A stretch of 64,000 bases of DNA from Bryobacteraceae bacterium (GCA_965214005.1 CBDCAQ010000009.1:79758-143757); one strand, 5' to 3'. Numbered from the stretch's first letter, positions 14,166-48,318 are shown. Numbers and translations are program-made. Notes: a model not told the origin generated them from the sequence alone.

Positions 14166-14185
14166 TGATGCATTCCTGCCGTGAG

Positions 14186-26520: not shown

Positions 26521-26546
26521 CCTCTGTTCAGATTGCTCTTCTGAGC

Positions 26547-26876: not shown

Positions 26877-28428
26877 ATGAAGAAGACACATCTTTTGTTC
26901 GGATCAGCTTTGCTACTCCTCGCATACGCGACCTTCAAACCGGCGGCGACGCAGCAGTGCACCATCTGGGGGGACGCAGCAAACGGAAGAGATTACCACG
27001 GCGGCAAAGCCCAGACGGATGCGTTCCAGACGCTGAACAAGGCTGCAAACATTGCAGCGGCGGGACGTCGTTTGCGCGATCGGCGGAAGCACTCCTTACA
27101 CCAATTCCTACCAGAATACTTCGATTCTCGAGATCACCAGTTCTGGCAAACCCTCTAAGCCAATCACTTTCACCTCTGCACCAGGTTCAACATTGGGTTC
27201 GAGCAACCAGGTAACGCTGCAGATTGCGGATGTGAACCTGAACGGCATCTGGGTACATGCAGGCACGAATAATCCCGGCAAGACCTTGACGGTACCCTCC
27301 TACATCATCGTCCAAGGATTCAATGTGGTGGGCAACGGTGCCAGTTCGAAGTCGGCCTTCGACGCGGCAGGTTGTCAGCCCGGAATCGAGATTACTTCCG
27401 GAACTTCACCGTGTTCCCAGGCTGCGATTGAACATCCGGACTCTTACCCTCAGTACAACTCGACATGCATCCAGGTGGATGGAAGGAGAACGGGTTACAC
27501 GGCGAGCGACGCAAGGCCGACGCATATCTCGGTATTGAGCAACACAGCACAGGAGTGCAGCGCGGCTGGCATCTCCGTCATTGAAATCGACTATGTGAAC
27601 GTTTCCTATAATGGTGTGTGGGATTCCGCTTTTTATACGACGTATGGGTAGAGCGGAATCGACTTTGTGGGGATGTGGGATTCCAATAAGAATGGGGGAA
27701 TGCCGATCGATAACACGTTTGCCGGAAGGTATCGGAATCTGGTGACTCAGAACAAGGTATTCAACACACAGGAGAAAGTCCCGTACAGGGGGTTCAAGCT
27801 GAACAACGCCTATATCATCACGGATGGCGAAGGGATCATCATGGATACGTTCGAGACCTCAAAGGGGGCGCCGGATGGAGCTCCAAACATGGCGGACTAT
27901 GCCGGTTCTACATTGATTGCCGATAACTTGATATGGAACAATGGCAGCTCCGGAATGCAAATTCTAAATTCCAACGACTTTGACATCTTCAACAACTCTC
28001 TTTACGGCAATGCGAACAACAACCTTCCTTCACCAAGCAACCAGTACAAAAATGGGGAGATTCAGATCAAGGGATCTATTACTGGCTTGAACGCTTATAA
28101 CAACATTCTTTAACCTGGAGGATCCGGGCAGTTAACGGCCACCGTAGTGGCCGGCTGCGGCTGCTGGTTCCTTAACAACGACCTGTATAATGAGACTGAC
28201 ACCCTGGTGGACGGCTCGTCGAAACCCAAAAACGACACGTCGAACATCACGACCTCTCCGCAATATGTCAAGGTCAGCACAACCGATAAATGGAGCGTTG
28301 ACCTTCATCTGACGCCAGGAAGCCCCGCCATCAACGCAGGTGAGAATTTTGCAATCCCATCTGTTGCTTATGGCGGCGGCCCAAGAACGGTTGGGTCGAA
28401 GTCTGACATCGGGGCATACGAGCAGTGA
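26877..28428 (+). pseudogene. disrupted right-handed beta-helix (pectate-lyase-fold) lipoprotein/secreted protein gene, paralog of 35992-37386 and 30464-32104
   Basis: Four ORF fragments align colinearly with the intact paralogs. There is a frameshift near 27060 (AFQTLNKAANIAAAG then DVVCAIGGS in another frame), an in-frame TAG at 27649-27651 (YTTYG*SGI versus YGTSAIS in the paralog) and an in-frame TAA at 28111-28113. Confidence 0.7.
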
Positions 28429-28437
28429 CCATACAAA

Positions 28438-28462
28438 GGCCCGGCATCTTTCTCGCCGGGCC
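28438..28462. terminator. bidirectional hairpin terminator between convergent genes
   Basis: GGCCCGGC-ATCTTTCTC-GCCGGGCC forms a perfect 8-bp GC stem, flanked by ATTT on the plus strand and TTTGT on the minus strand. Confidence 0.55.
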
Positions 28463-28507: not shown

Positions 28508-30379
28508 TCAGCAAGCTTCGAAAACGACACGAACCTCATTGTCGCCATGAGATGCTTTCACCTCAATGATGAGGTTGTGGACGTCCGGCTGCTGACCCTG
28601 GGGTTGAGGAACACTGGCGCTGATCACCTGAAAGCGCGCTCCGGGCGGGGACTCAATCGTCGCTTTGAGACGTTTGCCATTCTGCTCGAGAATTGCTCCT
28701 CCTTCGACGAGAAGAAAACTTGCCTTGGTGTGCATGTTCCAGCGAAGTTGACGATCGCCCGTTGACCGGATGTGATCCTGGATAGAGCAGCGCACATGCG
28801 GTGTGCGCTGCAGGTGAACGAGACGACGCACGAAGGTAAGATCAGGCTGATACGCCTTTGTGAGGTCAATAGCCGCGGACCCCTGCGCAGGGGCGGAAGC
28901 AAACTCCGTCAAGGGTGCGATGGCATCGAGCGGCTGGTTGTTTGTGCCGTATGTGAGCGTGTTATGCCCTTCCGTACGCAGGCGATAGTAGTCCCAGCGT
29001 TTGGTCGAGTTGAAGTACCCTGGCAAGGCATAGTCATCTGCTCCGAGATCCAGGGCCCAACGCACACCCAGCGCATCGAAGACGAACGAGCCGAGATCGA
29101 GATGAGCGTGCGAGCCGGCGTTATCTCCACCCTTGATGCCAATGAAGAATGCGTCGGGATGGGTCCAGGAAGTCCGGAGGCAGGCCAGATTGATCTTGCG
29201 GTAGCGAACGTCCAGTGGAGGGTACACCGCGGCGGCATACGCGCGGCGCTCTTCCTCAGCTGGTCCCCATAAAAGATGAAAGATTAGCGGCTCAGAGGCT
29301 GCGACCTGCTTGCTCTCACTAACGTTGTATATGGCCTTGTTGAACCGTTTTGCAAGCCAGAACATCTCCGGCGAAAGTTCCAGTTTAGCTGGTCCGTCGG
29401 CATAGTTGAACGACTCTCCGGTCGGCCCAATGAGGGCCATGCGGAAGGTACCGGTATCGGAAAAACCTTCCATTCTGGAGAGTTCCAGGTCAGTACCCAA
29501 GGCGCTTTCCAACCCGGAGATCATCGCGCAGGTGTATCTGGTCGCGTACAGCCAATAATTTGGCCCCTCCGGCCAACCGCCGTCGGGCGCATAGTTTGTA
29601 AGGGCATTGCGAACATTGGCCGTTGTTAATCTCAGCATCTGTTCCGGCTCAGGTGCCAGCCCTCCTGCGTCGTGCATTCCATCATTCAGGATGGCGAGCG
29701 CGCCCATCGTGAGCCCTCCATTGCAAACCTGTCCCCAGTTGTTTGCGTGGGGCAAAGTCCAGAACACCTGCTTTGTATATTGGTCCAGACCGGGCCGCAG
29801 CCCGTAGGCGATGATGCTGTTGCGGACTGTCGCACGGTCTTGCTCGGACAGCACCTCATAGAGCCAGTCGTACCCCAGGGCCGCGGCATTCGTCATTTCT
29901 GCCGTATCCAGAAAATGTTCTGGGTGCCAGCCCGGGAAGGAACATATGGCCATCAGTTCGGCGCGCGCCCGCAGCGCCTTGGCCTTGTCGCCGTCCAGCT
30001 TATAGAGCGCCCCAAGAGTTTCTATACGCAACAATGCAGCACGGCTTTGCGCGAGCAGACGAGGGCCAATCAACTTATATTCCGCTACTGGCTCAGACAT
30101 CATACTGTGCGCTGATATCTGAAGCTTCCTAAACCAATCCTGCAGCACGTCGTCTGTGGCGACCCGTTTGCGGAGCGTGTTCCATTGCTCCTGCCTGAAG
30201 TGCAAACGTGGATGCTCCGCAACCAGGCTGGTGCTTAGCAGCTCATCCACGTGGTTCACATGGGTAGCGTGCAAAACCTGTCCGGGCAGCAGGGCAGCAA
30301 GAGCAGCGACTTTACCACCTTTTTCGAGAAAGTCTCGTCGATTCAGGACGTTGAACATTCCTAGGGCCTGCTTTTTCAT
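28508..30379 (-). CDS. heparinase II/III-like polysaccharide lyase family protein
   Basis: A Tat-like signal (NRRDFLEKGGKVAALAAL) is present. An N-terminal alpha/alpha toroid-like region (FLDTAEMTNAAALGYDW) is followed by GSHAHLDLGSFVFDALG, typical of the Hepar_II_III domain. Confidence 0.7.
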   Translation of the reverse strand: MKKQALGMFNVLNRRDFLEKGGKVAALAALLPGQVLHATHVNHVDELLSTSLVAEHPRLHFRQEQWNTLRKRVATDDVLQDWFRKLQISAHSMMSEPVAEYKLIGPRLLAQSRAALLRIETLGALYKLDGDKAKALRARAELMAICSFPGWHPEHFLDTAEMTNAAALGYDWLYEVLSEQDRATVRNSIIAYGLRPGLDQYTKQVFWTLPHANNWGQVCNGGLTMGALAILNDGMHDAGGLAPEPEQMLRLTTANVRNALTNYAPDGGWPEGPNYWLYATRYTCAMISGLESALGTDLELSRMEGFSDTGTFRMALIGPTGESFNYADGPAKLELSPEMFWLAKRFNKAIYNVSESKQVAASEPLIFHLLWGPAEEERRAYAAAVYPPLDVRYRKINLACLRTSWTHPDAFFIGIKGGDNAGSHAHLDLGSFVFDALGVRWALDLGADDYALPGYFNSTKRWDYYRLRTEGHNTLTYGTNNQPLDAIAPLTEFASAPAQGSAAIDLTKAYQPDLTFVRRLVHLQRTPHVRCSIQDHIRSTGDRQLRWNMHTKASFLLVEGGAILEQNGKRLKATIESPPGARFQVISASVPQPQGQQPDVHNLIIEVKASHGDNEVRVVFEAC

Positions 30380-30463
30380 TCTGTAAGCCTCTACTGAGCT
30401 TAGTTCGCTGCTTTCAAGCCGCACCACGTACAGTCTGTGTCAGCGGGGCTAATCTCGAAGGGA

Positions 30464-32104
30464 TCAGTGGATCAACGCCCCGAGGTCAATGGCCGCATCT
30501 CCTGTGCGGGGGCGCCCAGTGAAATCTTCTCCAAATGCAAATTTGAGATTGCCCGCATGGAGAGCTGGGGAGTCAGCGCTCAAGCGGAAGTCATGCTGCG
30601 TTTCGTCCACGAACTTTGGGTCTGCGATACGATCAGACGCACCCAGAATTTCTGGGCGCCTTCCGCCAAAATAAAGGTTGTAGTCGTACACGACTCCGAC
30701 GGTGTCTTTGAACGCTTCATTGTTTTTGGCGCCTTCGCCGGCCACCGAGATATTATTTTCTACCGCCACATGCGACGCCTGGTGAACCCAGATCTGACCG
30801 TAATTCAGTCCAGGAGTCAGGCTGTTGTGAACCACGGTATTATTTAGCACATCCACATCGTCACTGCTATATACCTGGATGCCGGCCCCGCCATTTTCAT
30901 AGACGATGTTGTCGGCCACAAGCATGCGTCCGCGGAATGGGCCAGTGGCAGGATCGTCCTTGATGCGGTTGCTGTCGATGATGATCCCGTTGCCGTCCGA
31001 CAAGGCCTTGGTATGGTTCCATTTCACCTCAGTCCGATTTCGGTAGACCAGATTCCTGAGGATAATAATCTTGTAGTCGTGTATCTCATCTGTATTGAGG
31101 GATCCGAGGACGCTGATGCCGCTCGTCGCATACATGGCGCGGTACGAGGTATCGTGGATGACGTTCTCTTTGAAAAGAATGTAGTCCGCATCCATAGCTG
31201 AAACCCCGCCACCCTGCACGTCGTACACAGTGTTCTTGACGATTTCGATGTGGCGGGGCGCAAGGCGGAGGCTCGGACGAAGCTTCTGGTTGACTGCGCG
31301 GATGCTGATGCCGTTGGTCTGATACGCGCTGGTCTCTGGGCCGTAGCTTTCAAATTGGCTGCCCTGAATAAAGCGATCCGCCACCTTTTCCGCATCGGGC
31401 TGGGACACGTTGCGAGCATTGCCTGCGATCTCAAGGCCTTCAACGCGAATGTAGGACGCTGTAATCAGCACATGGTTCCAAGCCTTGACGGCGTGCAGTA
31501 CAGGGCGCTCACCGGGGTAGGCCTTGTAGGTGATCATCGCGCCTGGCAGGCCGGATCGCGAGATCGTCACAACACCTTCATTCGAAGTATCCAGGTAAGT
31601 GCCGCTTCGAATGAAGACGATGTCGCCTGGGCACGTCACGTTCTCAGCCGCTTGAATTGAGGCAAAGGGTTTGGCCTTGGTTCCGGGATTTGTATCGATC
31701 CCGGTTCCGGCCTCGACGTAGTACGACTTCCTCGAAACGGGCGGGGTGAGGTTGATCACCACGCGTGTCGGGCCAGGGTTCTGACCGGAGACAGGGTCCA
31801 GCCGAAACTCATCCTGGCCGATGAAGCCTGCTTCCGGAGTGTAGCTCCAGCTTCCCTGCTGGGCCTCGGCAAGCGTCAGTGTTCCATGTTTTGGCCTCAC
31901 TCCGATGGCGTAGGTGGTGGCCAATCCAGAGCCTTCGGTTCGGAAGGCTCTGCCCGTCAGGCGAGTGTCTCGAACTGCATCGTGGTAGTCCGAATGGGGA
32001 TACACAGGCAAAGGGGCGGCCAGATTAGCCTGGCCTAGAGCGGATCGTCCAGAGAGGCTAAGCAGAAAAAACGCGGTGATGCAGCAGGCGGCGATGGAAC
32101 GCAT
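30464..32104 (-). CDS. secreted right-handed beta-helix repeat protein with N-terminal Ig/cadherin-like domain
   Basis: A signal peptide is present, then GTLTL....SWSYTPEAGFIGQDEF, then YYVEAGTGIDTNPGTKAKPFASIQAA and repeated N.V/I.(N/D) beta-helix coils. The C-terminus ends in DFRLSADSPALHAG. Confidence 0.7.
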   Translation of the reverse strand: MRSIAACCITAFFLLSLSGRSALGQANLAAPLPVYPHSDYHDAVRDTRLTGRAFRTEGSGLATTYAIGVRPKHGTLTLAEAQQGSWSYTPEAGFIGQDEFRLDPVSGQNPGPTRVVINLTPPVSRKSYYVEAGTGIDTNPGTKAKPFASIQAAENVTCPGDIVFIRSGTYLDTSNEGVVTISRSGLPGAMITYKAYPGERPVLHAVKAWNHVLITASYIRVEGLEIAGNARNVSQPDAEKVADRFIQGSQFESYGPETSAYQTNGISIRAVNQKLRPSLRLAPRHIEIVKNTVYDVQGGGVSAMDADYILFKENVIHDTSYRAMYATSGISVLGSLNTDEIHDYKIIILRNLVYRNRTEVKWNHTKALSDGNGIIIDSNRIKDDPATGPFRGRMLVADNIVYENGGAGIQVYSSDDVDVLNNTVVHNSLTPGLNYGQIWVHQASHVAVENNISVAGEGAKNNEAFKDTVGVVYDYNLYFGGRRPEILGASDRIADPKFVDETQHDFRLSADSPALHAGNLKFAFGEDFTGRPRTGDAAIDLGALIH

Positions 32105-32163
32105 AATCCCTTTCTCAATGGGTAAAAGGCATGGCGGAGGAACGTAGCGCGTTGGCTAAAGAA

Positions 32164-32204
32164 GCCGGACGCATTGCGCGATGCTGCTGCGCGACGCGTC
32201 CGGC
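32164..32204 (-). other. intercistronic hairpin immediately downstream of the NHL/Ig gene
   Basis: GCCGGACGC...GCGTCCGGC forms a perfect 9-bp stem with a 23-nt GC-rich loop. Its function (attenuator, RNA-processing site or REP-like element) is unknown. Confidence 0.3.
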
Positions 32205-32210
32205 GTCAGC

Positions 32211-35200
32211 CTATTGGGTGATGGTAATGGACACGACACCGCTCTGTTGCTGAACGCTGGTGCTGCTATATGCCATGACGGTTGCGGTGTATTGACCCAC
32301 GGGGGTGGGTGCCAGGGCCGATGAGTTGGAGCCGCAGCCGAGCGTTCCGGAAACAGCCAGGACGAGCAGCAACAGCAGACTGCCTAAACCCCGGGAGAGT
32401 GCCTTGCGCCGGCGTGCCAGCATGCCGGTCAACAGCATCGCCCACAGGATGGTGTTTCCCGTCTTCTGCCAAGGCATTGGCGAGGTGCTGAGCGCGGCGG
32501 ATGCACCCGCAGTTGCAATCGTCACCTGCGACGTTATCACAGCACCGGACGGCGTTACGGATGAGGGTGTGAACGAACAGCTCGCTCCGGCCGGAAGCCC
32601 CGCGCAGGAGAACACTACAGGCTGGTTGAAGCCGCCGTACGGGGTGAGCGTCAACGTAGCGGTACCGGTCTGACCCTGCTTGATGGTCAAGCCTAAGGGC
32701 GACACAGCGAACGTGAAGCCGGGGGGGCCTACCGAGACGGCGATCGCAGGCGACGTAGACTTCGAGAAGTTGACATCTCCAACGTAGATCGCGCTGATGC
32801 TGTACAGCCCGTTGGGCGGAGCAAGGTAGCCAAAGGAGGCGGAGCCGCCGGCTAACTGCACCGTCCCTAGCAGAGAGGTTCCGCTGTAGAACTGCACATT
32901 CCCGGTTGGAGCCGTTGCCGTAGGACTGGAAACGATGGCTGTAAACGCGACGCTGCCAGCGGTAGGAACGCTGTAAGTTGATGCGGTGAGGCTTACAGAC
33001 GGCACGCTTTGCGTAACCGTCAACGTGCCGTTGACGGCGGTGACCGTGTAGTTCGCGAGGGCGGTCCCTGTGACGGAGGGAATAATGAAGTAACTCCCTA
33101 CCGGGCTGGATGCTCCCGCTATGCTGGACCCTCCAACAACGAACTGGTCACCGTTGACAGCACCGCTGACCATGCCCGTAAAGGCAGGGTTGGGGAGACC
33201 AAAGGCACGCGTCGCGTTACTTGCGGTGACGGTCAGCGGCGCTTTGGTGACGACGACCGCAAGGTTCCCAACCGTTCCGTTGACCGTAATGGACAAGGTA
33301 TAGGCGCCTACATTGAGGAGAGGCAATGAAAAGGCTCCCGTCCCTCCGGTTACCGAGACCGATGCCGTCGCCGTCATCGTACCGGTGATGGCGATGGTGT
33401 AGGTTCCATCTACCATGGAGGCGACGGTGTATGAAGGTGTCGTTCCGTAAACGAGCGAAGTGGAGCCGGAGATGGTGGCCAACGGCTGTGCCACGCCCAG
33501 GCCCTGCAGTCCCACGGTCGTCGCGGGACCGTTGGTTGATATGGCAAGGCTGGCGGTTTGCGCACCGCTAGCGGAAGGCTTGAAGACGGCTGTAATGTTG
33601 CAGGTGCTGGCAGGTGCAAGCGTGGCGCCGTCCACGCAGGTGGTCGACTGCTGAACGCTAAAGCCTCCCGTTCCCGCCGGAGCATTGTAGAAGGGAGTGC
33701 CAAGCTGCAACGGGATCGTGCCCGCGTTCGACAGGGTTGCCGTCAAAGGTGAACTCGTCTGACCAGCGATCACTGAACCGAAATTCAGGTTTCCAGAGCT
33801 CCTCGTCATTACGGCTACCCTGCCCGCCGTAACGTCGGTCGCGTAGATATTTCCGGAAGGATCGGCGGCAAGAGCCGAGGGCGTGGCGACAATGGACCCC
33901 AGTGTGGTAGCCTGCGCGACACTCAACACGCCCGCGATAGCGGGCAAGCGCGTAATGGTTTGCTTTCCGCTATCGGCAACAAAGAGAGAGCCGCCCGCAT
34001 CAACCGCCAGACCTGAAGCGTTGGTCAACCCGATGAGCAGAGTGGTCTGGTTGCCAGTGGAAAGCGTCACCTGATAGACGCGATTGCTGCCACTATCGGC
34101 GATAAAGATGTTGCCTCGGTTGTCGGTCGCGAGGGCCGAAGGTGCCGCGAAACCGCTTCCGACTGACGTTATCAAGCCGCCAAGCGCCTGAGCGGCGGAG
34201 GGTGCCAACTGCAGCACGCGGTTGTGCCCGCTATCCGCTACATAGAGATGGCCTGCGGTGTCGAGCGCAAGGCCCGCTGGGCCGCTGAGTCCGGTCAAGA
34301 GCGTGAGCGGAGATCCGTAAGCCGTTCCTGTCAATGGAAACTTCACGACATTATTATTCGTCGCAACGTATAGATTGCCAGCGCCGTCAGCGGCGATAGC
34401 CGACGCAGCAGCCAAGCCCGTCACGACCGGTGCCGCCTGGCCGTTCTTGACGATCGAGCCGGTGCTGCTGTCGAGTACATAGTTATTTCCAGCACCATCC
34501 AGAGCGATGCCTACAGGATTCTTCCACGAGGTGCCGATGCTGGAGTTGGTGCCTGGATCGACATTGCCCAACGGGCCTTGACCGAAGCCAGAAAGGTTCA
34601 CCTGTGCCAGAAGATTGCTGCTGGAATCGTAAGCGGAAAGTGCACCACCCTGCGGCCCTGCGGCGGTGGCCGTGTAGCCCACGGCGACGGTGCAGGACGA
34701 GCCAACGGCATACAGACGGCCCGCAACACATGTGGTTGCCCCCACGGTGAAGCCGGCGCTCGTGCCGCTGGCAAACGGAACGAAACTCCCAAAAGTTGTT
34801 GCTGTGTTGAATAGGAGATTCAGGGTCTGCGCCGCCGCCGAAGCGCCAACGTTGACCGAACCCAGACTGGCGCGATTGACACTAAGGCGGTTGAGCAGCT
34901 GCCCATTGTTGTTGCCCCCATAGTAGATGTTTCCAAGCGAATCCACGCCCACATCATAAGCTGCAGGCACCGCCGCAATGGAGTACTGGTATGCGGAGGA
35001 TAAGGTACCGCCCGCGTTCGGAATCACGACGATCTTGCCGGCGCCGGTATCCGTGATGTAGAGGCTTCCGCCTGCGTCGATCGAAACGCCCGTAGGCCTT
35101 ACGAGGCCGACACCAATGGTGGAAGCCACCGCCGAACCGGCAGGATAAAACTGTACCGTTGCGCTCGTTCCGTCAACATAGTAGATATCGCCGCCTGCGG

Positions 35201-35918
35201 TGACCGCAATTTGGGAGTAGCTTGTAGTCGGAGCGAGATTGTCAACGAGAATCGTCGTGACGCCGGCGGGATTGAACTGAACGATGCGCTTGTGAGCGCC
35301 ACCGGTGATGCCATCGTTCCTGTCTACGATGTACACATTTCCGGCACCGTCCAGCGCAAAGTCGTTCGCCTGAGCGTAGTAACCCAGCGTGGGAGTAGAA
35401 ATCCTATAGTAGCACGGCTTGGTATTCGCCAGAACGGGATTGGTGCACTGCGTTGCGCTCAGCGTCGAAGCGTCAATCCCAGTGGAATACGTCCCATTCA
35501 CAAATGGGATGAACTCCGGCTTGCCGCTGCCATCTGCGACCCAGAGATTATTCTGTGGGTCAACATACACTCCATAGGAGTATCCGGCGACGTTGGACAT
35601 CACCAGCACTGGTGTAGTCGTGCCCACCGGTATCTCAACCAGGAAATTCTTGATGTTAGTCCCTGGTGTGTCAAGATAAAACACATCCCCGCGACTATTA
35701 ACACTTACTCGTCCCAGGGTGCCGCTGGTATCTGTGCTACCAAACGTCGAAGAAACGTGGGCCAAGGTCCCAGATGATGTTGAGAATAGCGCCGCCGGAA
35801 CTTGCGCACCTAAAGGAACCGACAGGGCCGCCGCGGCTCCTGCTAACAAGACCACCTGTAAGCGCCGGAGGCTTCCGCCTGACGCGCACTTACTAACAAT
35901 TTCGATCAGCTTCTTCAT
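32211..35918 (-). CDS. large cell-surface protein: NHL-type beta-propeller repeats, Ig-like/choice-of-anchor-like domains, MBG domain, C-terminal membrane hairpin
   Basis: ATG at 35918 follows GGAG, with signal LLAGAAAALSVPLGAQ. Many D..GN(I/L)Y(I/V) repeats occur. C..G..L..G.SC...V.F.P-type Ig modules are present. NYTVTAVNGTLTVT is MBG-like. The C-terminus has two hydrophobic helices. Confidence 0.75.
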   Translation of the reverse strand: MKKLIEIVSKCASGGSLRRLQVVLLAGAAAALSVPLGAQVPAALFSTSSGTLAHVSSTFGSTDTSGTLGRVSVNSRGDVFYLDTPGTNIKNFLVEIPVGTTTPVLVMSNVAGYSYGVYVDPQNNLWVADGSGKPEFIPFVNGTYSTGIDASTLSATQCTNPVLANTKPCYYRISTPTLGYYAQANDFALDGAGNVYIVDRNDGITGGAHKRIVQFNPAGVTTILVDNLAPTTSYSQIAVTAGGDIYYVDGTSATVQFYPAGSAVASTIGVGLVRPTGVSIDAGGSLYITDTGAGKIVVIPNAGGTLSSAYQYSIAAVPAAYDVGVDSLGNIYYGGNNNGQLLNRLSVNRASLGSVNVGASAAAQTLNLLFNTATTFGSFVPFASGTSAGFTVGATTCVAGRLYAVGSSCTVAVGYTATAAGPQGGALSAYDSSSNLLAQVNLSGFGQGPLGNVDPGTNSSIGTSWKNPVGIALDGAGNNYVLDSSTGSIVKNGQAAPVVTGLAAASAIAADGAGNLYVATNNNVVKFPLTGTAYGSPLTLLTGLSGPAGLALDTAGHLYVADSGHNRVLQLAPSAAQALGGLITSVGSGFAAPSALATDNRGNIFIADSGSNRVYQVTLSTGNQTTLLIGLTNASGLAVDAGGSLFVADSGKQTITRLPAIAGVLSVAQATTLGSIVATPSALAADPSGNIYATDVTAGRVAVMTRSSGNLNFGSVIAGQTSSPLTATLSNAGTIPLQLGTPFYNAPAGTGGFSVQQSTTCVDGATLAPASTCNITAVFKPSASGAQTASLAISTNGPATTVGLQGLGVAQPLATISGSTSLVYGTTPSYTVASMVDGTYTIAITGTMTATASVSVTGGTGAFSLPLLNVGAYTLSITVNGTVGNLAVVVTKAPLTVTASNATRAFGLPNPAFTGMVSGAVNGDQFVVGGSSIAGASSPVGSYFIIPSVTGTALANYTVTAVNGTLTVTQSVPSVSLTASTYSVPTAGSVAFTAIVSSPTATAPTGNVQFYSGTSLLGTVQLAGGSASFGYLAPPNGLYSISAIYVGDVNFSKSTSPAIAVSVGPPGFTFAVSPLGLTIKQGQTGTATLTLTPYGGFNQPVVFSCAGLPAGASCSFTPSSVTPSGAVITSQVTIATAGASAALSTSPMPWQKTGNTILWAMLLTGMLARRRKALSRGLGSLLLLLVLAVSGTLGCGSNSSALAPTPVGQYTATVMAYSSTSVQQQSGVVSITITQ

Positions 35919-35991
35919 GACACACTCCGAACGGACTGCAACAAACTTGTAAACGGCGATCATCCGCCGGCGATTTGAGAAAAGATGACGA

Positions 35992-37386
35992 TTATTGCGA
36001 GTAGGCTCCACGCGTGTACCCTGCCGAGGACGGCCGGGGGGTCCCGTTGATGTCCGTTGTGGGTGCAAGGTACGACGTGCCACTTCCGAGGGCAGGACTG
36101 CCTGGGAGAAGCTTGAGGCTGACGCCCGTAGGAGTGGTTGCGATTGGAGTGGCAAAAAGAGGATTTACGACCAGGTCGTGAGGCCCGGATACAGCACCCG
36201 AGAGCTTTGTGCTTCCCCCGTAGTAGACGTTGTAGTCTATCGTGCAGTGGGTAGTACAGCCATTGCTTACGACGATGGGGTTCTGGCCAACAGAACTGTA
36301 CATCACGTTGTTAATCACATTCACATCGTCGACGAAGTTGATGTTTACCTCTCCACGACCGCTCTCCGCAGGGGAGAGTACATTGCCATAGGTGGAGTTG
36401 TTCACGACGTCGATATGGCTGGAGTGAAAAGCCTCAACCGCCGCACTTCCATCGTTATATATGACATTGTTAGCGATCAGGGTTCTTCCGGTGTAGGCAA
36501 TCTGCGAGTTGCCCGTTCGATTATTCTGGTTCGTATCGATGATGATCGCCTCGCCATCAGTGATAGCAGGGGCAGGCTGATTCTGCTGCCAGGGAACATA
36601 TTCCTGATTGTTGTACAGGAGATTGTTCGTGATGATCATTTTGTATGGAGTGGCAACGTCGGCAGGGTTGGAATCCCAGTCCGTGAGGTTGGAAATTGCA
36701 CTCGTTCCATAAGCCGTATACCAGGATGTGTTATAGATGGTGTTGCCCGAGATGGTGATGTAGTCGGCACTCACAGTTGCGACTCCCGCTCCGCCGCAAT
36801 CATGGATGACGTTGTTCAAAATATTGATGTGGTGCGGACCCGCGGTTGTCACACCGCTCCCACCCACAATTCCTACGCAATTACCATTGAACTCTGGGTA
36901 TTTGGCAGCTTGCGAGGCATACTGCAGTGCCTGCGCGAGAGTGACATTCTGGTTGTTCCCGATGATCGTCAGTCCCTTCAATTCGACATAGGAAGCGGCA
37001 CTGTCGAACTGCACGCCGTTATAGCCGGTAAATGAAATCACGGGCGTCGCCCCCGGATACCCGTTGAACTTGATCCAGTTGTTAGGCGTTCCCGACACAC
37101 TGATCGTCACAACGGGAGAAGATGCAATGCTGTTTGAGTAAGTGCCATTCATGACGAGCACCGTCATGCCTGGTCCTACAACATTGGCGGCGCGCTGCAG
37201 GGTCCGAAACGCGGTTCCCGTGGACAGGCCATCCGAAGTGTCATTGCCGGCTCCACTGACGTAAAAGGTGGTGCCAGCGGTTGCGGGACCCGCTGCCTCC
37301 GGAGTCAGGATGCCGGAGGCACAGCCGCTCAACCCGAGAACACAAAGAGCAGCAATCAGCGCGAGATGGGAAAACTTGAAGTTCAT
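35992..37386 (-). CDS. right-handed beta-helix repeat lipoprotein (pectate-lyase fold)
   Basis: ATG at 37386 follows AAGAGGA. Lipobox LGLSGC. FYVSGAGNDTSDGLSTGTAFRTLQRAA plus repeated NN(V/L)I(Y/H) coils. The C-terminus contains LLPGSPALGSG. Confidence 0.7.
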   Translation of the reverse strand: MNFKFSHLALIAALCVLGLSGCASGILTPEAAGPATAGTTFYVSGAGNDTSDGLSTGTAFRTLQRAANVVGPGMTVLVMNGTYSNSIASSPVVTISVSGTPNNWIKFNGYPGATPVISFTGYNGVQFDSAASYVELKGLTIIGNNQNVTLAQALQYASQAAKYPEFNGNCVGIVGGSGVTTAGPHHINILNNVIHDCGGAGVATVSADYITISGNTIYNTSWYTAYGTSAISNLTDWDSNPADVATPYKMIITNNLLYNNQEYVPWQQNQPAPAITDGEAIIIDTNQNNRTGNSQIAYTGRTLIANNVIYNDGSAAVEAFHSSHIDVVNNSTYGNVLSPAESGRGEVNINFVDDVNVINNVMYSSVGQNPIVVSNGCTTHCTIDYNVYYGGSTKLSGAVSGPHDLVVNPLFATPIATTPTGVSLKLLPGSPALGSGTSYLAPTTDINGTPRPSSAGYTRGAYSQ

Positions 37387-37414
37387 GGTCCTATCCTCTT
37401 GTGTTTCCATTGCC

Positions 37415-40400
37415 TTAGTAGGTGTACTTGATGGAGAGCTCGAGGATGCGCCGTCCGGACTTATACGGTGCGGAGCCAAAGTCGAGGTTTACATTGTTCA
37501 AGCTTCCGAGAGATGCGGCTGATGCGGGACTGCCTACACCTCCCGTCCGCACAAAACTCAACGTGGTCTCCGTCGGGTATGTACTGTTGAAGCTGTTCAC
37601 GGCGTGATTGAGGTAATTGAACGCGGCGAGCCGAAGTTGCAAATCCTGCTTGTCATGCACCTTCACCGTTCGGCTGACCGATAGATCATTTGTCATGTAG
37701 GCGGGTCCGTGTAGGTAGGGAAGCCGATAGCTTCCGTTGGTTCCAAGCGTCAGCGGCGCCGCGAAGCATGTGCCATTGACATACTGGTGAGGCTTCAGAT
37801 TCGAGCTTGGGTCGCAGGTAACCCGCGGCATCAGCATCACGTCGGGAGTTCCCAGAAACGATGTTGGTGACAAGGAAAGCCCGTTAGATGAACCGCCAAA
37901 GCCGAAGCTCGGGCTGCCCGTCGTCACAAGGTCGGATCCACTGAGCAAATTCGTGATCCCAGCCAACTCCCAATCATTGACAACCGCCCCAGTGAAGGCG
38001 TGGAAGTGCCGCCCGGCCTGCAAACTGTAGCGGATATTGAAAATGTGTGTACGGTCGAATGATTCAGGCTGGTAGTTGTCGCGCTGATTGAACGGGTTAG
38101 TCGGGTTTCCGTTGCCGCCATCGCTTCCAAGGATCCCGAGTGCCTTCGAGAACGTGTAATTAGCGCTGAACAGTACATGGCCCGTGCGCCTGGTCCAGGA
38201 AACCTGTAGAGCGTGGTAATTCGCGTAATTCACATGCTGGGCAATCAGTAGGTTCTGGTAGGTGGGGTATTTCCTATACGCGTTGATCTGAGCCGCCTGC
38301 AACCCCGCGACCGCCGTGTAGTCGCCGTAATTGTAGGGACCACGGCTATAGAGTGCGTTCACCGGCAGCGCGTTGATGTCGTCTATATTGACGGAGCCAG
38401 TTCCACCGTTGTTCAGTAGATTGTTGGAGTAGTTGCCGACGTAGGCGATCTCTGTAGTGCTCTTCAGCGGCATTTTCTGCACCACAGACAGATTCCAGGT
38501 ATATACCTGTGGCATCTTATCGTCGCCTTGCGAGTAGCCAAAGAGCTTGCTGGCGCTTACCGTGCCCGAATTGACGGGAGCATTGGTCTGACTAATTGCC
38601 GCAAAGGTCGTGTTTACGGGTGACAGACTCTTCTGACCTTGGGCGGTGGCTACGCCCAGAGACGCATCGTTATAGCTGTCGTGGGCCGTGTAAATGCCAA
38701 ATCCCCCGCGAACAATGGTTTCGCCCTTTTTGTAAGGATCCCACGCGAACCCGACACGAGGCTCTACGAAAGCCCAGCGCGTTGCAGCGCCGGAAAGCGG
38801 AACGGTGGGGTCGATCGCATGCCACAGAAAGCCGGGCAAAGGGGAGCCCGCAGCGTCGCTGTGGTAGGCGCTGTCGCTAAACACCGGCACGCCGATATTG
38901 TGCGCGTCGCTCCATGGGGTGATGTGCTCGAAGCGGATGCCGAAATCGATGGAAAAGTTCTGTTTGATGCGCCAGTGATCCTGCGCATAGCCGGAAATAT
39001 TCCAAAAATAAAGGTTGACGGGGGGATTAATGTTGGTCTGGATGTACTGGGCGAGGTTGCCTTCTGCAAAGTTGGCCAGGTAATTTCCACCGCTGCCGCT
39101 GTTTACCGCACCAGTATCGTGAATGAGGGGACCAACCGGCAAGTTCGAGACGGGGTTAACAGGCTGATAGGTCTCCCCGTAGTAGTAGAGGGCGACGCTC
39201 CCGTTGGTGGGAATATACGATTGCAGGCCGTTGTTGCTGTCCATCTGTCCGTAAAAACCGATGCGAGCGGTGTGCGTTCCCCACTGCTTGGTTAGGTTGT
39301 CGCCGCCCGTGCGTACGAGCTTGTTGGTGAAAATCCCCTTCTCATATGTGTCTTGCCACAGCGCTAGGGGCAGGCCGAGCGCTCCGCCGTAGCCAAGCAA
39401 TTGCGGCACGGTCTGACTGCCGTTATTGTAGGCACCTGCGTACGGAAAGCCGAGCGCAGTTGTATTCAACGCGCTGGGTGTTTTGTTCGTGAACGCCACG
39501 CCCAGGAATGAGATCGCTCCGTAGAACTCATTGGTTAAGGTTGGTGAGATGATGGTGCTTATGTTGAGGGAGCCGAGTTGGGAGTCATGAGTATAATTCT
39601 CTCCTCCTCCGGGAGTATTGACACCGCCCAGCGTTGAACGCGGTGAGTAGTACGGCACCTGGGGGTTCCCCTGCAATCCGCGCTGAGTGTTGTAGACCAG
39701 GAACATATTAGTCTTGCCAATCCCGTAATCGAGCCGTCCGCGAGCCTGCCACAGATCGTTATCGATCAGGTTCGTCGTGATCCAGTTATAGGCGGTCGAC
39801 CCCGTGGGGACATTAGGCAGGGGAAGCAAATTGAGAAGCGCCTTCGATCCCGGATCGAGGGTGATCTGTCCGTTCGTTAGCGGTAAGCCGTCCACCCCGG
39901 TCACGGGCACCGGGCAGAGATGGCTGTAGGCGGAGTCACAGTTGCCTGCCGAGTGGTAGTGATTGCCGAGGTACTGCTGGATCTGTGTGGCGCTGAAGTC
40001 CCCGTTCCTCATGCCGGCGGTTGGGACCAGCGCGGTGAGCAACGCATTGCTGGCACTGCCATAAGCGTAGGAGTTCTTCTGTGCATAGTCTTCCCCGCCT
40101 ACCCAGAAGGTCAATTTCCGATTGCGGTTGAAGCTTGTGCCGGGAATCAGCACTGGGCCGCCAAGCGTTCCCCCGGGATAAATCTGACGATCTGGCGGTT
40201 TGAGCTGATGCGTAAACTTCGCAAACCAGTCTGTGGAGTTAAGCTGCGTCGTACGGGCATAAGTGTAGAGCGAACCGTGGAACGTGTTGCCTCCGGATCT
40301 CCCCACAGCGTTGATGACGATAGGGCCATGTGCGGTATCCGCCGTCATGCTGGAGGTCTGAACCTTCACCTCCGCTACTTGGTCGTAGTTCACCGCCTGG

Positions 40401-41089
40401 ATGGCGGAGCCGAAGTTGCCCGGGTCCGTGATGTCGGCGCCATCGGACAGCAGCGCGACTCCGTTCAAAGGCGTGCCGTTGCCGTGGTAGCTGCCAAGCG
40501 CCCCGCTTACGCTGACTTGCGATGGATCGTAGATAGTATTCGCTACGTTGCCGTTTCCGTTGCCTGGGGTAAAACCCGGGAGCGTCTTCAGGAGCTCCGT
40601 GACATCGCGGCCCTCAATCGCGATGTGCTTGATGTCCTCGGCGGAGATCAGCGCGCTGAGTTCGCCGGAGTCCTGATTAATCCCAGCCTGGTCCGACTCT
40701 ACGGTCACGTTGACGTCAGCTCCTGCCCCGAGCCTTAGGTCGCGCAGAACCCGCTGGTCCTGAGGATCCAGGTGTATGTTCGTCTCCGTCAGCTGATTGA
40801 AACCCGGAGCCGATATCGTTACGTTGTAGTCGCCGCTTGGGACGGCCGAAAACGAGAACACACCCTGCTCGTTGCTTCGTGACGGTCTCGCAGCGCCTGT
40901 GGCCATGTTCGTGATCACAACCTTGGCATGCGGAATCAGCGCTCCCGTGGTATCTACCACCGTGCCGGAGATTGAAGCTGTCGTTACCTGAGCCTGGAGG
41001 GCAGATGGAGCACACAACAGGGTGGCGGAGCCGAGCACAAAGCGAAGACTCGATTTTCGGAACGCTTTTATAAGATTGCCATGGAACAT
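37415..41089 (-). CDS. TonB-dependent outer-membrane receptor with carboxypeptidase-regulatory-like domain
   Basis: ATG at 41089 follows GGAGG. A signal peptide is followed by TTASISGTVVDTTGALIPHAKVVITN. The protein is about 1,220 aa and ends in LSIKYTY. Confidence 0.85.
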   Translation of the reverse strand: MFHGNLIKAFRKSSLRFVLGSATLLCAPSALQAQVTTASISGTVVDTTGALIPHAKVVITNMATGAARPSRSNEQGVFSFSAVPSGDYNVTISAPGFNQLTETNIHLDPQDQRVLRDLRLGAGADVNVTVESDQAGINQDSGELSALISAEDIKHIAIEGRDVTELLKTLPGFTPGNGNGNVANTIYDPSQVSVSGALGSYHGNGTPLNGVALLSDGADITDPGNFGSAIQAVNYDQVAEVKVQTSSMTADTAHGPIVINAVGRSGGNTFHGSLYTYARTTQLNSTDWFAKFTHQLKPPDRQIYPGGTLGGPVLIPGTSFNRNRKLTFWVGGEDYAQKNSYAYGSASNALLTALVPTAGMRNGDFSATQIQQYLGNHYHSAGNCDSAYSHLCPVPVTGVDGLPLTNGQITLDPGSKALLNLLPLPNVPTGSTAYNWITTNLIDNDLWQARGRLDYGIGKTNMFLVYNTQRGLQGNPQVPYYSPRSTLGGVNTPGGGENYTHDSQLGSLNISTIISPTLTNEFYGAISFLGVAFTNKTPSALNTTALGFPYAGAYNNGSQTVPQLLGYGGALGLPLALWQDTYEKGIFTNKLVRTGGDNLTKQWGTHTARIGFYGQMDSNNGLQSYIPTNGSVALYYYGETYQPVNPVSNLPVGPLIHDTGAVNSGSGGNYLANFAEGNLAQYIQTNINPPVNLYFWNISGYAQDHWRIKQNFSIDFGIRFEHITPWSDAHNIGVPVFSDSAYHSDAAGSPLPGFLWHAIDPTVPLSGAATRWAFVEPRVGFAWDPYKKGETIVRGGFGIYTAHDSYNDASLGVATAQGQKSLSPVNTTFAAISQTNAPVNSGTVSASKLFGYSQGDDKMPQVYTWNLSVVQKMPLKSTTEIAYVGNYSNNLLNNGGTGSVNIDDINALPVNALYSRGPYNYGDYTAVAGLQAAQINAYRKYPTYQNLLIAQHVNYANYHALQVSWTRRTGHVLFSANYTFSKALGILGSDGGNGNPTNPFNQRDNYQPESFDRTHIFNIRYSLQAGRHFHAFTGAVVNDWELAGITNLLSGSDLVTTGSPSFGFGGSSNGLSLSPTSFLGTPDVMLMPRVTCDPSSNLKPHQYVNGTCFAAPLTLGTNGSYRLPYLHGPAYMTNDLSVSRTVKVHDKQDLQLRLAAFNYLNHAVNSFNSTYPTETTLSFVRTGGVGSPASAASLGSLNNVNLDFGSAPYKSGRRILELSIKYTY

Positions 41090-41579
41090 TCTGTACAGCC
41101 TCCTGAGGTGACCCCAAAATTCGCGACGCGCAAATGGGTGACCCCACTTCGCACCGGATACTGCCTTGGTGAGATAAGACCTCACAAGTCATAAAGTGTG
41201 GTTGCACGTCGCTTTACGTGAAATCCCCCGTTTCCCGCCATTGCAGCGGGTCCGCTGTGTCAACCGGTCGGAACAGGGACAGGGTAGCGGGAGCATAGCG
41301 AAGGTTGTTCCGAGGCAGAAGAAGAAGGATGCGCGGCGGCGACTCATGAGCTGAACGTCTGCAGCAGATCATGGGCAAAAGAGCTTTGCGCCTCGCGACC
41401 AAATCGCAACCTCGGGGCGAGCGCGCATGGGGATGCGAACAGATGATTCGACTTGCCTGGTGTTGGTCACCCGGCGGAGCAAAGATTTCAGGAGGCGGCT
41501 ACCATTTCTGCTGCACAGCTGGCCATGGGAGCGCAAAACACTCAGGGTCTGTTTTGCTTATCCGGCAGCACGGTGGCGT

Positions 41580-43043
41580 TCACCTGTCCAGCAAGGCAGG
41601 TCTGGAAATAGCGAGGGATGCGACGAGTTCGCCAAACAGACTATTCGCCCAGGCGAACCACTCGCGCGAAAACTTGTCCGGATGATTGCTGTCAAAGCTC
41701 TCATGAATGAAGCCTGTACCGGCGCTCGCCCGGCTGAGCATTGCGATACAGTGGCGAATCTCCATGTCGGACTTGCTGGTAAGTGCAAAGATGATCTGCG
41801 ACATGGGCCAGATTCTGCTCCGGCCTGTATGTGGACTGCCGATGCCCTCGCCGGCCGCCCCTTGGAAGAACCAGGGATTTTCGGAACTCCAAATCAGCTT
41901 GCGCGTGCGGTCATAAATTGCGGAATCGGGAGAGCATCCCAGGTACGGCAGCGATAACAGGCTCGGAGAGTTGGCATCGTCCATCAGTACCCGGCCTCCA
42001 AAGCCGTCGACCTCATAGGCCCACACGGTGCCGGAAGGCGTTTGGACGATCGCGTATCTGCGCAGGGCCGCTTCGACCTCTGAAGCAAGGCTACCTGCCG
42101 ATTCCGCCATAGCGGGATCATGCAGCACCTTGTCGGCCATCTCCGCGAGCTGACGTAATGAAGTTACCGAAAGCAGGTTCGACGGAACCAGGAAGGGGAA
42201 TATGCATGCGTCGTCTGATGGGCGAAAGCCTGATGCGATGAGACCTGACGGGCTTACCGGATTGCCATAGCCATCGTTCGGCAGCAACTCGTTTGTGTAC
42301 AGCGATTCGCGCTGAAAGTGGTACGGTCCCGTTCCATGTTTGCGTTGCTGCGTTCTCATGGTGTCTAGCACCAGGGTCATCGCCATTTTCCACTCTGCTT
42401 GAAAGGGTCGCGTTTCTCCGGTTTGCCGCCAGAAGCCATGCGCGAGACGAATGGGGTAGCAGAGCGAGTCCAGCTCATACTTCCGCTCTCCCACGCCGGG
42501 CAGCATCATGGTCAGGTCTTTCTTCGTCCATGGCAGCGCGGGGGAGGAATCGTCGCGCGTGAAGGCGTTGGCATAAGGATCAATGAGAATGTACCGTGTC
42601 TGCCTGCGGATGACTCCTTCAATCATGTCAAGCAGACGCCGGTCCTTCATCGCGAGTGACAGGTACGGCCAGATCTGCGCGGATGAGTCACGCAGCCACA
42701 TGGCAGGAATGTCGCCGGTCACCACAAAGGTATCGGGAACTCCGTCGACTGTTTGATAATCAACGGTAGTATCAAGCGTGTTTGGATAACAGTTGCGGAA
42801 CAATCGCGCCAGCGCCGGCGTCCTTATGCGGCGGGACACGTCGTTCATAAACTCTTCGATTGCAGGACTGGTGAACTTCCGACTTCCCATTGCCGGTCTT
42901 GCTTCAGGAACCGAATCTTCAAATGTCATCTGGAGGGCACGACTTGCAGCCGAGACATGCAGGAACGATCCCGCACCAGCCAGCGCAGATGAAGTAAGAA
43001 AGCCACGGCGACTCGTTAGTTCCACCGCATCCTTTATTGCCAC
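41580..43043 (-). CDS. GH125-like (DUF1237) exo-alpha-1,6-mannosidase family protein
   Basis: A Tat-like signal (SRRGFLTSSALAGAG) is present. TGDIPAMWLRDSSAQIWPYL is the hallmark GH125 motif. The start overlaps the end of the upstream GH42-like gene by 10 nt. Confidence 0.75.
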   Translation of the reverse strand: MAIKDAVELTSRRGFLTSSALAGAGSFLHVSAASRALQMTFEDSVPEARPAMGSRKFTSPAIEEFMNDVSRRIRTPALARLFRNCYPNTLDTTVDYQTVDGVPDTFVVTGDIPAMWLRDSSAQIWPYLSLAMKDRRLLDMIEGVIRRQTRYILIDPYANAFTRDDSSPALPWTKKDLTMMLPGVGERKYELDSLCYPIRLAHGFWRQTGETRPFQAEWKMAMTLVLDTMRTQQRKHGTGPYHFQRESLYTNELLPNDGYGNPVSPSGLIASGFRPSDDACIFPFLVPSNLLSVTSLRQLAEMADKVLHDPAMAESAGSLASEVEAALRRYAIVQTPSGTVWAYEVDGFGGRVLMDDANSPSLLSLPYLGCSPDSAIYDRTRKLIWSSENPWFFQGAAGEGIGSPHTGRSRIWPMSQIIFALTSKSDMEIRHCIAMLSRASAGTGFIHESFDSNHPDKFSREWFAWANSLFGELVASLAISRPALLDR

Positions 43044-47577: not shown

Positions 47578-48318
47578 ATAGTTTTGTCTCCAGTGCTGGC
47601 TGAACGGTACAGGATCGAATGAGTCAGAGTTTTTTATGATCGACTCGAGTACACCGACCTTCGCCCAAGTCCAATTGTGGTATTCAGACGTATGCCTACA
47701 CAACGGTAGATCGAACCGTATGCGGTTCTGCACACGGATGATTGCTGGTACCTGATCGCGCTGCTGCGACCGGCAAGCAGTCCGCACCTTTCGCTTGGAT
47801 CGTGTGACCCTGCTCAAGCTCTCGCACGTTACCTTTATACGTCCGGAGAGCTTCGATGGGCGGCAATACCTGGAAGAACATCTGCCGTTTGTACAGTCCG
47901 CACACCAGATAATCTCTGGATCTATATGCCGATCGAAGAAGCGACACTCTCCTTCGTGTTGTGGCGAGTCGCAATGGAGGAAGAAGAGAGTGCAATCCGC
48001 ATACGATGCGGGCGTGGCAATCTGGAGTTCTTCGCCGCCAAGCTCCTTGGTACGGGACACCGGATTGTCGTTTATCAATCTGGGGAGTTGCAGGGAGGTT
48101 TCGGACTCTGGTTCCGAGGGCAATGCAGGCTGCAGGCGAACCACCTGAAGGATGTTCCTGCCTGGACATGCGGGAAGCGATTCTACTTTCACGTCGGCTT
48201 CTCGTTAGTATCTCAATCCAGCCGTGGTGGTGCCGGGTAGGAGCCGCAAATCAATACGGTGCGCTTCCTAGTACTTAAAAAGCGCTTCACAACCGTCGAA
48301 GCTCGACCGTTCTCCCCG

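Follow-up and report, generated by a model that had tools for sequence, protein, structure and literature searches.

A SusD-Less, PUL-Like Gene Cluster From a Bryobacteraceae Genome Encoding a TonB-Dependent Receptor, a Predicted Lipid-Anchored NHL/Ig Protein, Beta-Helix Proteins, and a PL35 Lyase

Introduction

In the Sus paradigm of the polysaccharide utilization loci (PULs) of Bacteroidota, the SusC TonB-dependent transporter (TBDT) is combined with SusD, surface glycan-binding proteins, surface and periplasmic carbohydrate-active enzymes (CAZymes), and a dedicated regulator. The TBDT-CAZyme clusters of Proteobacteria, which include the "CUT loci" of Xanthomonas and the PUL-like loci of marine Gammaproteobacteria, group a SusD-less TonB receptor with CAZymes, a regulator, and an inner-membrane transporter, and we know of no conserved large surface partner beside the receptor in such loci. 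Acidobacteriota rank among the most abundant bacteria of soil and encode many CAZymes and TonB receptors; the SusD-less capture of polysaccharides by these organisms is, to our knowledge, essentially undescribed. Here we analyze a cluster of five genes (A to E) from a Bryobacteraceae genome (GCA_965214005.1, CBDCAQ010000009.1:79758-143757), encoding a TonB-dependent receptor (TBDR), a beta-helix lipoprotein, a large protein of NHL propeller and immunoglobulin-like (Ig) domains, a second beta-helix protein, and a lyase of polysaccharide lyase family 35 (PL35). The whole stretch of DNA analyzed, 64,000 nt of a single strand, is termed the window. Its host is taken as a probable acidobacterium from the taxon names borne by distant homologs and from the kind of receptor.

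We consider these five genes, with a probability of roughly 0.6, to serve at the envelope as the "front end" of a PUL-like system without SusD, directed at an acidic, glucuronate-containing heteropolysaccharide. As in the Bacteroidota PULs, a TonB importer is followed by proteins predicted to be lipid-anchored in the envelope, possibly including a surface enzyme lipoprotein, and the locus has predicted periplasmic exo-enzymes, a candidate for a dedicated membrane-spanning regulator, and a shared promoter element. It differs from them in that the cluster is without a SusD homolog, the partner candidates being the beta-helix lipoprotein and the NHL/Ig protein, whose predicted lipid anchor is C-terminal and not N-terminal; in its receptor barrel, which is of the PF25183 type; and in its candidate regulator, which is ToxR-like and not of the hybrid two-component, SusR, or ECF/anti-sigma kind. 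The Proteobacterial clusters are closest in kind, and the window type is set apart from these by a recurrent NHL/Ig protein with a "lipo-invert" anchor beside the receptor, and by a beta-helix family that is uncharacterized.

The genes and structural elements of the cluster are as follows, with coordinates and gaps that use the start codons of an earlier, sequence-only reading of the window (open reading frame [ORF] listing):

37415..41089, minus strand: gene A, TonB-dependent receptor, 1224 aa, with a Sec signal peptide (Pfam)
35992..37386, minus strand: gene B, beta-helix lipoprotein, 464 aa, lipobox LSG-C (Pfam Beta_helix; NCBIfam choice-of-anchor Q)
32211..35918, minus strand: gene C, NHL/Ig/MBG protein, 1235 aa (Pfam and NCBIfam)
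32247..32534, minus strand: C-terminal lipo-invert anchoring module of C (NF058595, alignment, AlphaFold2 [AF2], and Foldseek)
32164..32204, minus strand: RNA hairpin directly 3' of the C stop codon (folding energy)
30464..32104, minus strand: gene D, secreted Big_9 Ig and beta-helix protein, 546 aa, predicted glycanase (Pfam and AF2)
28508..30379, minus strand: gene E, PL35 polysaccharide lyase, 623 aa, twin-arginine signal (PDB matches)
28438..28462, either strand: G+C-rich hairpin, likely a bidirectional terminator (pairing and fold)

The Receptor and Its Candidate Partner

The receptor matches the Pfam families OMP_b-brl_4 (3e-114, 383.6 bits) and CarboxypepD_reg (1e-20, 73.9 bits), along with a Plug match (2e-4, 22.3 bits) that falls just below the cutoff of 23.9 bits, and it shares 54% identity with the receptor of the related locus L005 and 38% with that of L089. 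The description of the cluster as PUL-like without a SusD partner holds, as no SusD-family Pfam match was found in any non-overlapping ORF of at least 230 aa in the window; the gene 3' of the receptor encodes a beta-helix protein, and the adjacent susC/susD pair is not present. CAZymes are nevertheless clustered with the transporter, and PL35, GH88, GH36-like, two GH3, GH42, and GH125 enzymes, together with two intact beta-helix proteins, are encoded within 32 kb. The locus is PUL-like in its predicted working, and is not a member of the SusC/SusD type.

Protein C contains two NHL propeller regions, Ig domains of the ASH/HYDIN/choice-of-anchor-D kind, MBG_2 and Big_3_5 domains, and a split Ig domain at its terminus (Pfam, NCBIfam); its orthologs are 59% identical (P0122, on the L002 contig) and 41% identical (L005). 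The tail comprises a hydrophobic helix (residues 1156-1168), a basic cluster (RRRK, 1169-1172), a second helix ending in the lipobox TLG-C1195, and a further stretch of ∼40 residues with two beta strands. This is the order of elements in NF058595, the NCBIfam "lipo-invert putative C-terminal anchoring domain," in which a hydrophobic helix, a basic cluster, and a helix ending in the lipobox cysteine are followed by terminal strands. The C copy differs in scoring below the curated cutoff of 37 bits (35.1 bits, E = 1.4e-8; 33.7 bits for a shorter piece), and the domain itself is a computational proposal only; a literature search returned no paper on a "lipo-invert" domain. Among the relatives, 22 of 24 match at E of 0.001 or below (best 1.6e-21), and P0161, scored singly, passes at 43.7 bits. 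The module is present in the C orthologs and in 79 of 120 homologs. Its lipobox cysteine is invariant in an alignment of 24 tails, and across the 79 tails the lipobox is canonical, with G, A, or S at position -1 and most often L at position -3. In the AF2 model of the C tail, the strands flanking the two-helix insert have pLDDT values of 92-98 and the insert is of lower confidence, while in Foldseek all 175 aa align onto single Ig-like domains. The model therefore indicates that the helical hairpin interrupts one Ig fold.

In a sample of acidobacterial NHL/Ig proteins (P0121-P0240), about two thirds carry the lipo-invert tail, with 20-71 aa (median ∼40) following the cysteine. P0170 and P0238 have the helical hairpin one Ig strand later, which suggests that the insert can occupy different loops.

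Genes for the tail-bearing NHL/Ig proteins adjoin, or lie one gene from, a same-strand TBDR of the PF25183 type in seven of eight contexts (the window, L001/L002, L005, L089, L174, L176, and L177, but not L175, with the near-identical L001 and L002 counted once), and the enzymes beside these pairs vary (GH95/GH29/GH39, GH30, Malectin, or beta-helix). This adjacency is the strongest evidence that C could be an envelope-anchored partner of the receptor, and, with the predicted C-terminal lipid anchor, it makes plausible the surface-partner role that the sequence-only reading had proposed for C. C could alternatively be a general surface adhesin or an enzyme that takes no part in the uptake cycle of the receptor and is merely co-regulated with it. 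NHL propellers include lactonases and lyases, and C has weak matches to the SGL gluconolactonase, Vgb_lyase, and ScyE families; its family is also very large in Acidobacteria (232 matches among 8000 candidates scored, the distant homologs carrying the names Acidobacteriia, Terriglobia, and Acidobacteriaceae), and L175 holds a tail-bearing member with no receptor nearby. The enzyme-family matches, however, are below or near their thresholds, and the association with a same-strand TBDR holds in the other contexts despite their differing enzymes; we regard this alternative as unlikely.

Beta-Helix Proteins

Proteins B and D are paralogs (32% identity, E = 3e-57), and both retain an acidic motif that is invariant in their family (TDGEAIIID in B, with D277 and D284; SDGNGIIID in D, with D370 and D377). 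D combines a Big_9 Ig domain with Beta_helix and Pel9A-like regions (Pfam), and its AF2 model (pLDDT 90.7) has as its Foldseek neighbors PL9 lyases, GH136 lacto-N-biosidase, GH120 xylosidase, alginate epimerases, and PL6. The PL9, GH136, and GH120 enzymes are the best structural matches and have in common with D a right-handed beta-helix fold and a cap motif at the N terminus, although D is only 11-17% identical to its structural neighbors, with TM-scores of 0.3-0.57. A PDB sequence search with B gave no match, and PDB sequence and family-profile searches aligned the N-terminal cap only, such that no family could be assigned.

In Pel9A (PL9), an Asp cluster binds Ca2+ and a Lys serves as the catalytic base. 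A 42-sequence alignment of the B/D family has invariant Asp residues (D307, D370, and D377 of D), but within the helix no Lys or Arg such as PL9-type lyases employ is invariant. The D-x6-D spacing of the family equals that of the catalytic acid/base and nucleophile pair D568/D575 of the GH136 enzyme ErLnb136 (PMC7335108), a likeness compared by spacing and offered as a lead only; GH136 enzymes additionally depend on a GH136-I helper domain. From these comparisons we conclude that B and D are predicted glycan-cleaving enzymes of an uncharacterized family, and they may be hydrolases, of which the lack of a conserved basic residue is a weak indication. The carbohydrate function that the sequence-only reading implied for both proteins is supported, both being carbohydrate-enzyme-like, whereas its suggestion that lipoprotein B captures glycans is not: B is not likely a binding protein because it is a paralog of the enzyme-like D, and is better seen as a lipid-anchored enzyme. 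A role for B as a SusD analog was considered and rejected, given this clear paralogy and the invariant acidic motif common to both proteins.

An alignment search with B and D recovered 383 relatives among 8000 candidates scored, some with carbohydrate-binding modules, from Acidobacteria, Streptomyces, Nostoc, Paenibacillus, and Bacteroidota, and a profile search of the contigs of reference genomes placed the family at no fewer than 583 loci. No Acidobacteria are among the best 80 of these at least 583 loci, which therefore give context in other phyla only. In Paenibacillus and Streptomyces, the homologs adjoin sugar ABC-transporter permeases and regulators.

In Nostoc and its relatives (L026, L033, L046, L052, L062, L064, L067, L073, L076, L079, L080, and L084), the family occurs within exopolysaccharide (EPS) biosynthesis clusters that encode a Wzc-like kinase, a Wzy_C (O-antigen ligase family) protein, and GT4 transferases.

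EPS biosynthesis clusters are a typical place of EPS-trimming glycanases, and a GT87 glycosyltransferase gene follows D in L001 and L002. From these contexts, it might be argued that the window system remodels or recycles the organism's own EPS, as in biofilm matrix turnover, and does not forage for foreign polysaccharide. Yet no glycosyltransferase, flippase, polymerase, or export genes are among the scanned genes of the window, and the TonB importer, full set of exported exo-glycosidases, GH88, and nearby transporter and sugar kinase form a catabolic signature, which leaves EPS turnover improbable.

The PL35 Lyase

Lyase E has a Pfam match to Hepar_II_III_C and aligns over residues 56-594 with PDB 8KHW (E = 1.8e-90, 307.5 bits); further matches are to 8KHV (2e-86, 294.2 bits) and to 9O3Q, a "PL35 chondroitinase" (7e-61, 209.8 bits). 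It thus has full-length homology (∼1e-90) to the PL35 glycosaminoglycan (GAG) lyases named GAGases II and VII (8KHV/8KHW; PMC12088678, PMC11262172), with which it has in common the Mn2+ site and the residues used in catalysis (Asn-Asn, Tyr, and His). The essential residues of GAGase II are Tyr246, His401, and Asn191/192, and the Mn2+ ligands are His403, Asp405, Asp421, and His457 (PMC12088678); all are kept in E, within the motifs NNWGQ (from residue 213), NYWLY (274), SHAHLD (423), ALDLG (442), and GHNTL (471). Because of the full-length PL35 match, these conserved residues, and a twin-arginine motif (RRDFL), E is probably a periplasmic, active PL35 lyase. It differs from the described GAG lyases in coming from a probable soil acidobacterium, in its Tat export, and in its neighbors, which are beta-helix enzymes instead of sulfatases or a SusC/D pair; its substrate may be a uronate polymer of microbial or plant origin rather than a GAG from animals.

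The heparinase II/III-like lyase of the sequence-only reading is thus predicted from its sequence to be a genuine uronate lyase, and specifically a PL35 enzyme, but it stands outside the conserved core of the cluster. At the syntenic position in L001, L002, and L005 there is no PL35 gene, but instead the GT87 gene (L001 and L002) or unknown genes, and the PL35 gene is a lineage-specific addition.

Conservation of the Gene Order

The order receptor, beta-helix lipoprotein, NHL/Ig protein, beta-helix (Big_9) protein is kept in the near-identical L001 and L002 and in the more distant L005, and the beta-helix orthologs encoded after the receptor gene are likewise lipoproteins in L001 and L005; GH125 and GH42 genes also neighbor this core in L001. 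The gene-neighborhood comparison that had been proposed as a check is accordingly favorable in part: the four-gene order is conserved, and PL35 is not within it.

Beyond these relatives, a scan of metagenomes with protein B alone gave no match, and an alignment query yielded 80 B-like loci. Most of these lack the partner genes of the window, and the four-gene core is therefore not general. Among the 41 fetched loci of at least 9 kb, several partner genes occur in L111 and L123 only. L111 has the receptor, two beta-helix genes, the sugar transporter, a PfkB kinase, a protein like the formylglycine-generating enzyme (FGE)-sulfatase family, a GH88, and a PL35 fragment at the contig end, and L123 has orthologs of the candidate regulator and of the GH36-like gene, with both beta-helix types. 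In L003 and L006, a GH36-like gene is directly beside the D homologs.

Transcription of the Cluster

The layout and the domain calls of the sequence-only reading were confirmed: the ORF listing gives five genes on the minus strand (28508-41089) separated by 28, 73, 106, and 84 bp, and Pfam agrees with the assignment for each of the five proteins. The strong hairpin described at the array end (28438-28462) is likewise real, with nine pairs of which eight are G-C, a U-rich tail on the minus strand, and a position between two convergent gene sets (for the 81 nt around it, fold of -35.2 kcal/mol, z = -4.3). Features expected of a single unit are the common strand, the short gaps, the one regulatory box (5' of A only, with none found before B, C, D, or E), and the terminal hairpin, but a second hairpin with a U-rich tail follows C (32164-32204; -30.1 kcal/mol, z = -4.4, then UUCUUU). 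L005 has a hairpin at the equivalent place (z = -3.5), and that of L001 is weaker. A single uninterrupted transcript of the five genes is not assured because of this stable structure just 3' of the C stop codon, which may attenuate transcription internally, terminate it in part, or stabilize the RNA; expression of D and E may therefore depend on attenuated read-through past it. A scan for sigma-70 promoters gave fewer sites than in shuffled sequences and none in the intergenic gaps, and Rfam and tRNA scans of the window were empty.

The five genes could instead form two or more units (receptor-B-C and D-E), the PL35 gene having been added recently, and be neighbors within a CAZyme island instead of one module transcribed together. 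This would account for the hairpin after C and its counterparts in the relatives, and it accords with a syntenic position that has no PL35 gene and with the fluid gene content around the beta-helix family. Hairpins within operons, however, often attenuate or stabilize transcripts and do not fully terminate them. Moreover, neither a copy of the regulatory box nor a promoter-like site was found in the C-D and D-E gaps, and D follows C in all three relatives with gaps of less than 100 bp. We judge a division into separate units possible but somewhat doubtful, and retain the five genes as one front end, with E as a lineage-specific addition to it.

A Shared Promoter Box and a Candidate Regulator

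The following elements may link the cluster to other genes of the window:

41206..41219, minus strand: operator-like box ACGTAAAGCGACGT, 116 nt 5' of the start codon of receptor A (pattern match)
16314..17672, minus strand: candidate regulator, 452 aa, of ToxR/CadC-like layout (synteny, weak Trans_reg_C match)

The relaxed pattern of the box, ACGTAAANNNACGT (short form ACGTAAAGnnACGT), has four matches in the 64 kb against 0.01 expected, and all are intergenic and oriented with the downstream gene. They lie 5' of the GH36-like/GH88 arm (17763-17776), of a second NHL gene, NHL2 (24223-24236), of a beta-helix pseudogene (26660-26673), and of the receptor (41206-41219), and an exact 15-mer is common to the regions 5' of the receptor and of the pseudogene. 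In the aligned sites, a conserved block, ACTTGCC or, in shorter form, ACTTG(C/T), follows the box and is a putative -35 element. The box is also found 5' of the orthologous receptor in L001 and L002 and of the D homolog in L006. The functional unit had been taken to be the operon at 28508-41089; this operon is instead one of four units with the box, and the unit is larger.

Additionally, the acidobacterial CAZyme locus L088, with GH30, cellulase, and LacI genes, has a ACGTAAAGTGACGT box (10483-10496, minus strand) 5' of a DUF5107/TPR gene; the box is therefore used beyond beta-helix operons.

The candidate regulator begins with a region resembling a winged helix, contains a single hydrophobic segment predicted to span the membrane, and ends in a large domain. 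In L001 and L002, the gene that diverges from the receptor gene encodes a protein 57% identical to this regulator. The DNA-binding domain of the candidate regulator is recognized below threshold only (Trans_reg_C, residues 64-117, E = 0.04), and a paralog beside a second receptor has an equally weak Trans_reg_C match. From the layout and synteny of the 452-aa protein we infer that this ToxR-like protein is a candidate to act on the boxes.

The second receptor belongs to a separate unit (9289-15962), in which the 457-aa regulator paralog (28% identity) is divergent from a receptor with CarboxypepD_reg and OMP_b-brl_4 domains (10836-14165), followed by a 552-aa secreted protein with no Pfam match (14304-15962). 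Unannotated proteins of ∼530-550 aa after a receptor or beta-helix gene in L089, L005, L003, and L087 are likened to this 552-aa protein by size alone.

A Second NHL and Beta-Helix Pair

Two of the boxes precede the members of a further pair of genes, which are convergent with the cluster:

24406..26520, plus strand: NHL2, intact lipoprotein of 704 aa with a weak NHL propeller signal (own box, 24223-24236)
26878..28428, plus strand: beta-helix pseudogene, a third paralog and closest to the B type (own box, 26660-26673)

NHL2 is 26% identical to C, in the repeats only, and 54% identical to u702 of L005, a protein whose gene belongs to the same operon there. The pseudogene is ∼30% identical to B and carries a single frameshift, near 27050, as well as two in-frame stops (27649-27651 and 28111-28113). 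The recurring, partly decayed NHL and beta-helix module that had been described at 24406-28428 is therefore real, but it is an old, diverged paralogous module and not a recent duplicate. A recent tandem duplication was rejected as the origin of the pair, the identities being only 26-30%.

In L005 (13348-17882), the NHL2 ortholog (702 aa) is followed by a 760-aa protein (bH760) whose N-terminal half is NHL2-like (49% over 351 aa) and whose C-terminal half is a B-type beta-helix (45%). From this gene fusion, a functional link between NHL2 and the B-type beta-helix follows.

The Wider CAZyme Island

On either side of the cluster and the second pair, further CAZyme genes are encoded:

17977..20226, plus strand: GH36-like alpha-galactosidase relative (Pfam, PDB search)
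20270..21445, plus strand: GH88 unsaturated glucuronyl hydrolase (PF07470, 2e-67, 228.1 bits, 330 of 352 positions)
21738..24032, plus strand: GH3 (Pfam)
41580..43043, minus strand: GH125 exo-glycosidase, 5' of the receptor (Pfam)
43034..45145, minus strand: GH42 (Pfam)
45439..48192, minus strand: GH3 (Pfam)

All of these glycosidases, and the lyase, carry Sec or Tat signals. A sugar transporter gene (5054-6043) is ∼22 kb from the receptor cluster, and in L111 it is within the gene string of the receptor.

The transporter is the first of a trio, with a PfkB kinase and a 724-aa FGE-sulfatase-like protein, that occurs both in the window (5054-9182) and in L111 (11340-15534), and FGE-like proteins of ∼724 aa are encoded near beta-helix genes in L003, L006, L087, and L112. 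In the first part of the window (441-4770) are genes for a short-chain dehydrogenase/reductase (SDR), an FAD-dependent oxidoreductase (PF12831), a ROK kinase, and a phosphotriesterase-family (lactonase-like) protein, which may serve downstream sugar or uronate catabolism. Toward the other end, a 2710-aa ORF (50550-58682, minus strand) combines GH2, Ig, and four F5/8 type C (galactose-binding-like) domains with a C-terminal GH64 beta-1,3-glucanase domain. Beyond it are ArdC-N (anti-restriction), ParB, and RepB-primase genes (59324-63717), and the GC skew changes sharply after ∼58 kb; this region resembles the border of a mobile element, plasmid-like or integrative, beside the CAZyme island.

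Predicted Substrate and Working of the System

GH88 enzymes act on the unsaturated glucuronyl products of lyases such as PL35. A glucuronate-containing substrate is indicated because both PL35 and GH88 are encoded, and the substrate is likely an acidic heteropolysaccharide with glucuronate. The GH36-like, GH42, GH125, and GH3 enzymes suggest that it also has alpha-galactosyl, beta-galactosyl, alpha-1,6-mannosyl, and beta-glucosyl-type residues, and a microbial exopolysaccharide is plausible.

In the working that we propose, the membrane-bound ToxR-like regulator (16314-17672) would activate the four promoters with the box ACGTAAANNNACGT, and the first cuts of the polymer would be made at the cell envelope by the beta-helix lipoprotein B. 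C, held at a membrane by its lipo-invert anchor, would partner the TonB-dependent receptor in the manner of SusD and the surface glycan-binding proteins of Bacteroidota, and the receptor would import the oligosaccharides. These may be cleaved further in the periplasm by D and the Tat-exported PL35 lyase, after which GH88 would remove the unsaturated uronate and the GH36-like, GH3, GH42, and GH125 enzymes the neutral sugars. Uptake would be completed by the sugar transporter and the PfkB kinase encoded elsewhere in the island.

Several observations weigh against this account of the locus. The four-gene core is found only in close relatives and in none of the 41 loci with lengths of at least 9 kb among the 80 B-like metagenomic loci fetched, and PL35, itself missing from the syntenic position in L001, L002, and L005, co-occurs with the beta-helix family in only three of 80 genomes outside the phylum (the best 80 of at least 583 loci). 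The beta-helix family has no characterized member, and none of its 383 relatives has a functional name. To these are added the stable hairpin after C, the score of the C tail below the cutoff for NF058595, the size of the C family in Acidobacteria, the tail-bearing member of L175 that has no receptor nearby, and the sub-threshold DNA-binding domain of the candidate regulator.

Implications for Acidobacteriota

Extending the proposal to the phylum, we tentatively suggest that in Acidobacteriota large NHL-propeller/Ig proteins on a C-terminal lipid anchor of a kind not characterized before fill the role of SusD or the surface glycan-binding proteins, in complexes with PF25183 receptors. Signal peptidase II would cut at an internal lipoprotein signal, and the lipidated peptide of ∼40 aa that is left would complete the final Ig domain through strand complementation. 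B and D would represent a new CAZy family, consisting of endo-glycanases whose substrates are acidic exopolysaccharides; taken together, we consider this extension possible rather than probable. Searches of the literature returned nothing that links NHL proteins to acidobacterial receptors, and Acidobacteriota go unmentioned in a 2026 review of bacterial glycoside transporters.

The locus provides a parts list for such systems, comprising a receptor, a lipo-invert NHL/Ig partner, a widespread beta-helix family, a PL35 enzyme, and a candidate regulator with its DNA box. Within it, E is a PL35 lyase from outside the gut and marine settings in which PL35 was defined. Furthermore, the locus points to a large lipid-anchored propeller protein, and not SusD, as the usual partner of the importer in Acidobacteriota; if true, this would constitute a second architecture for the capture of glycans at the outer membrane, along with a new mode of anchoring proteins by lipid.

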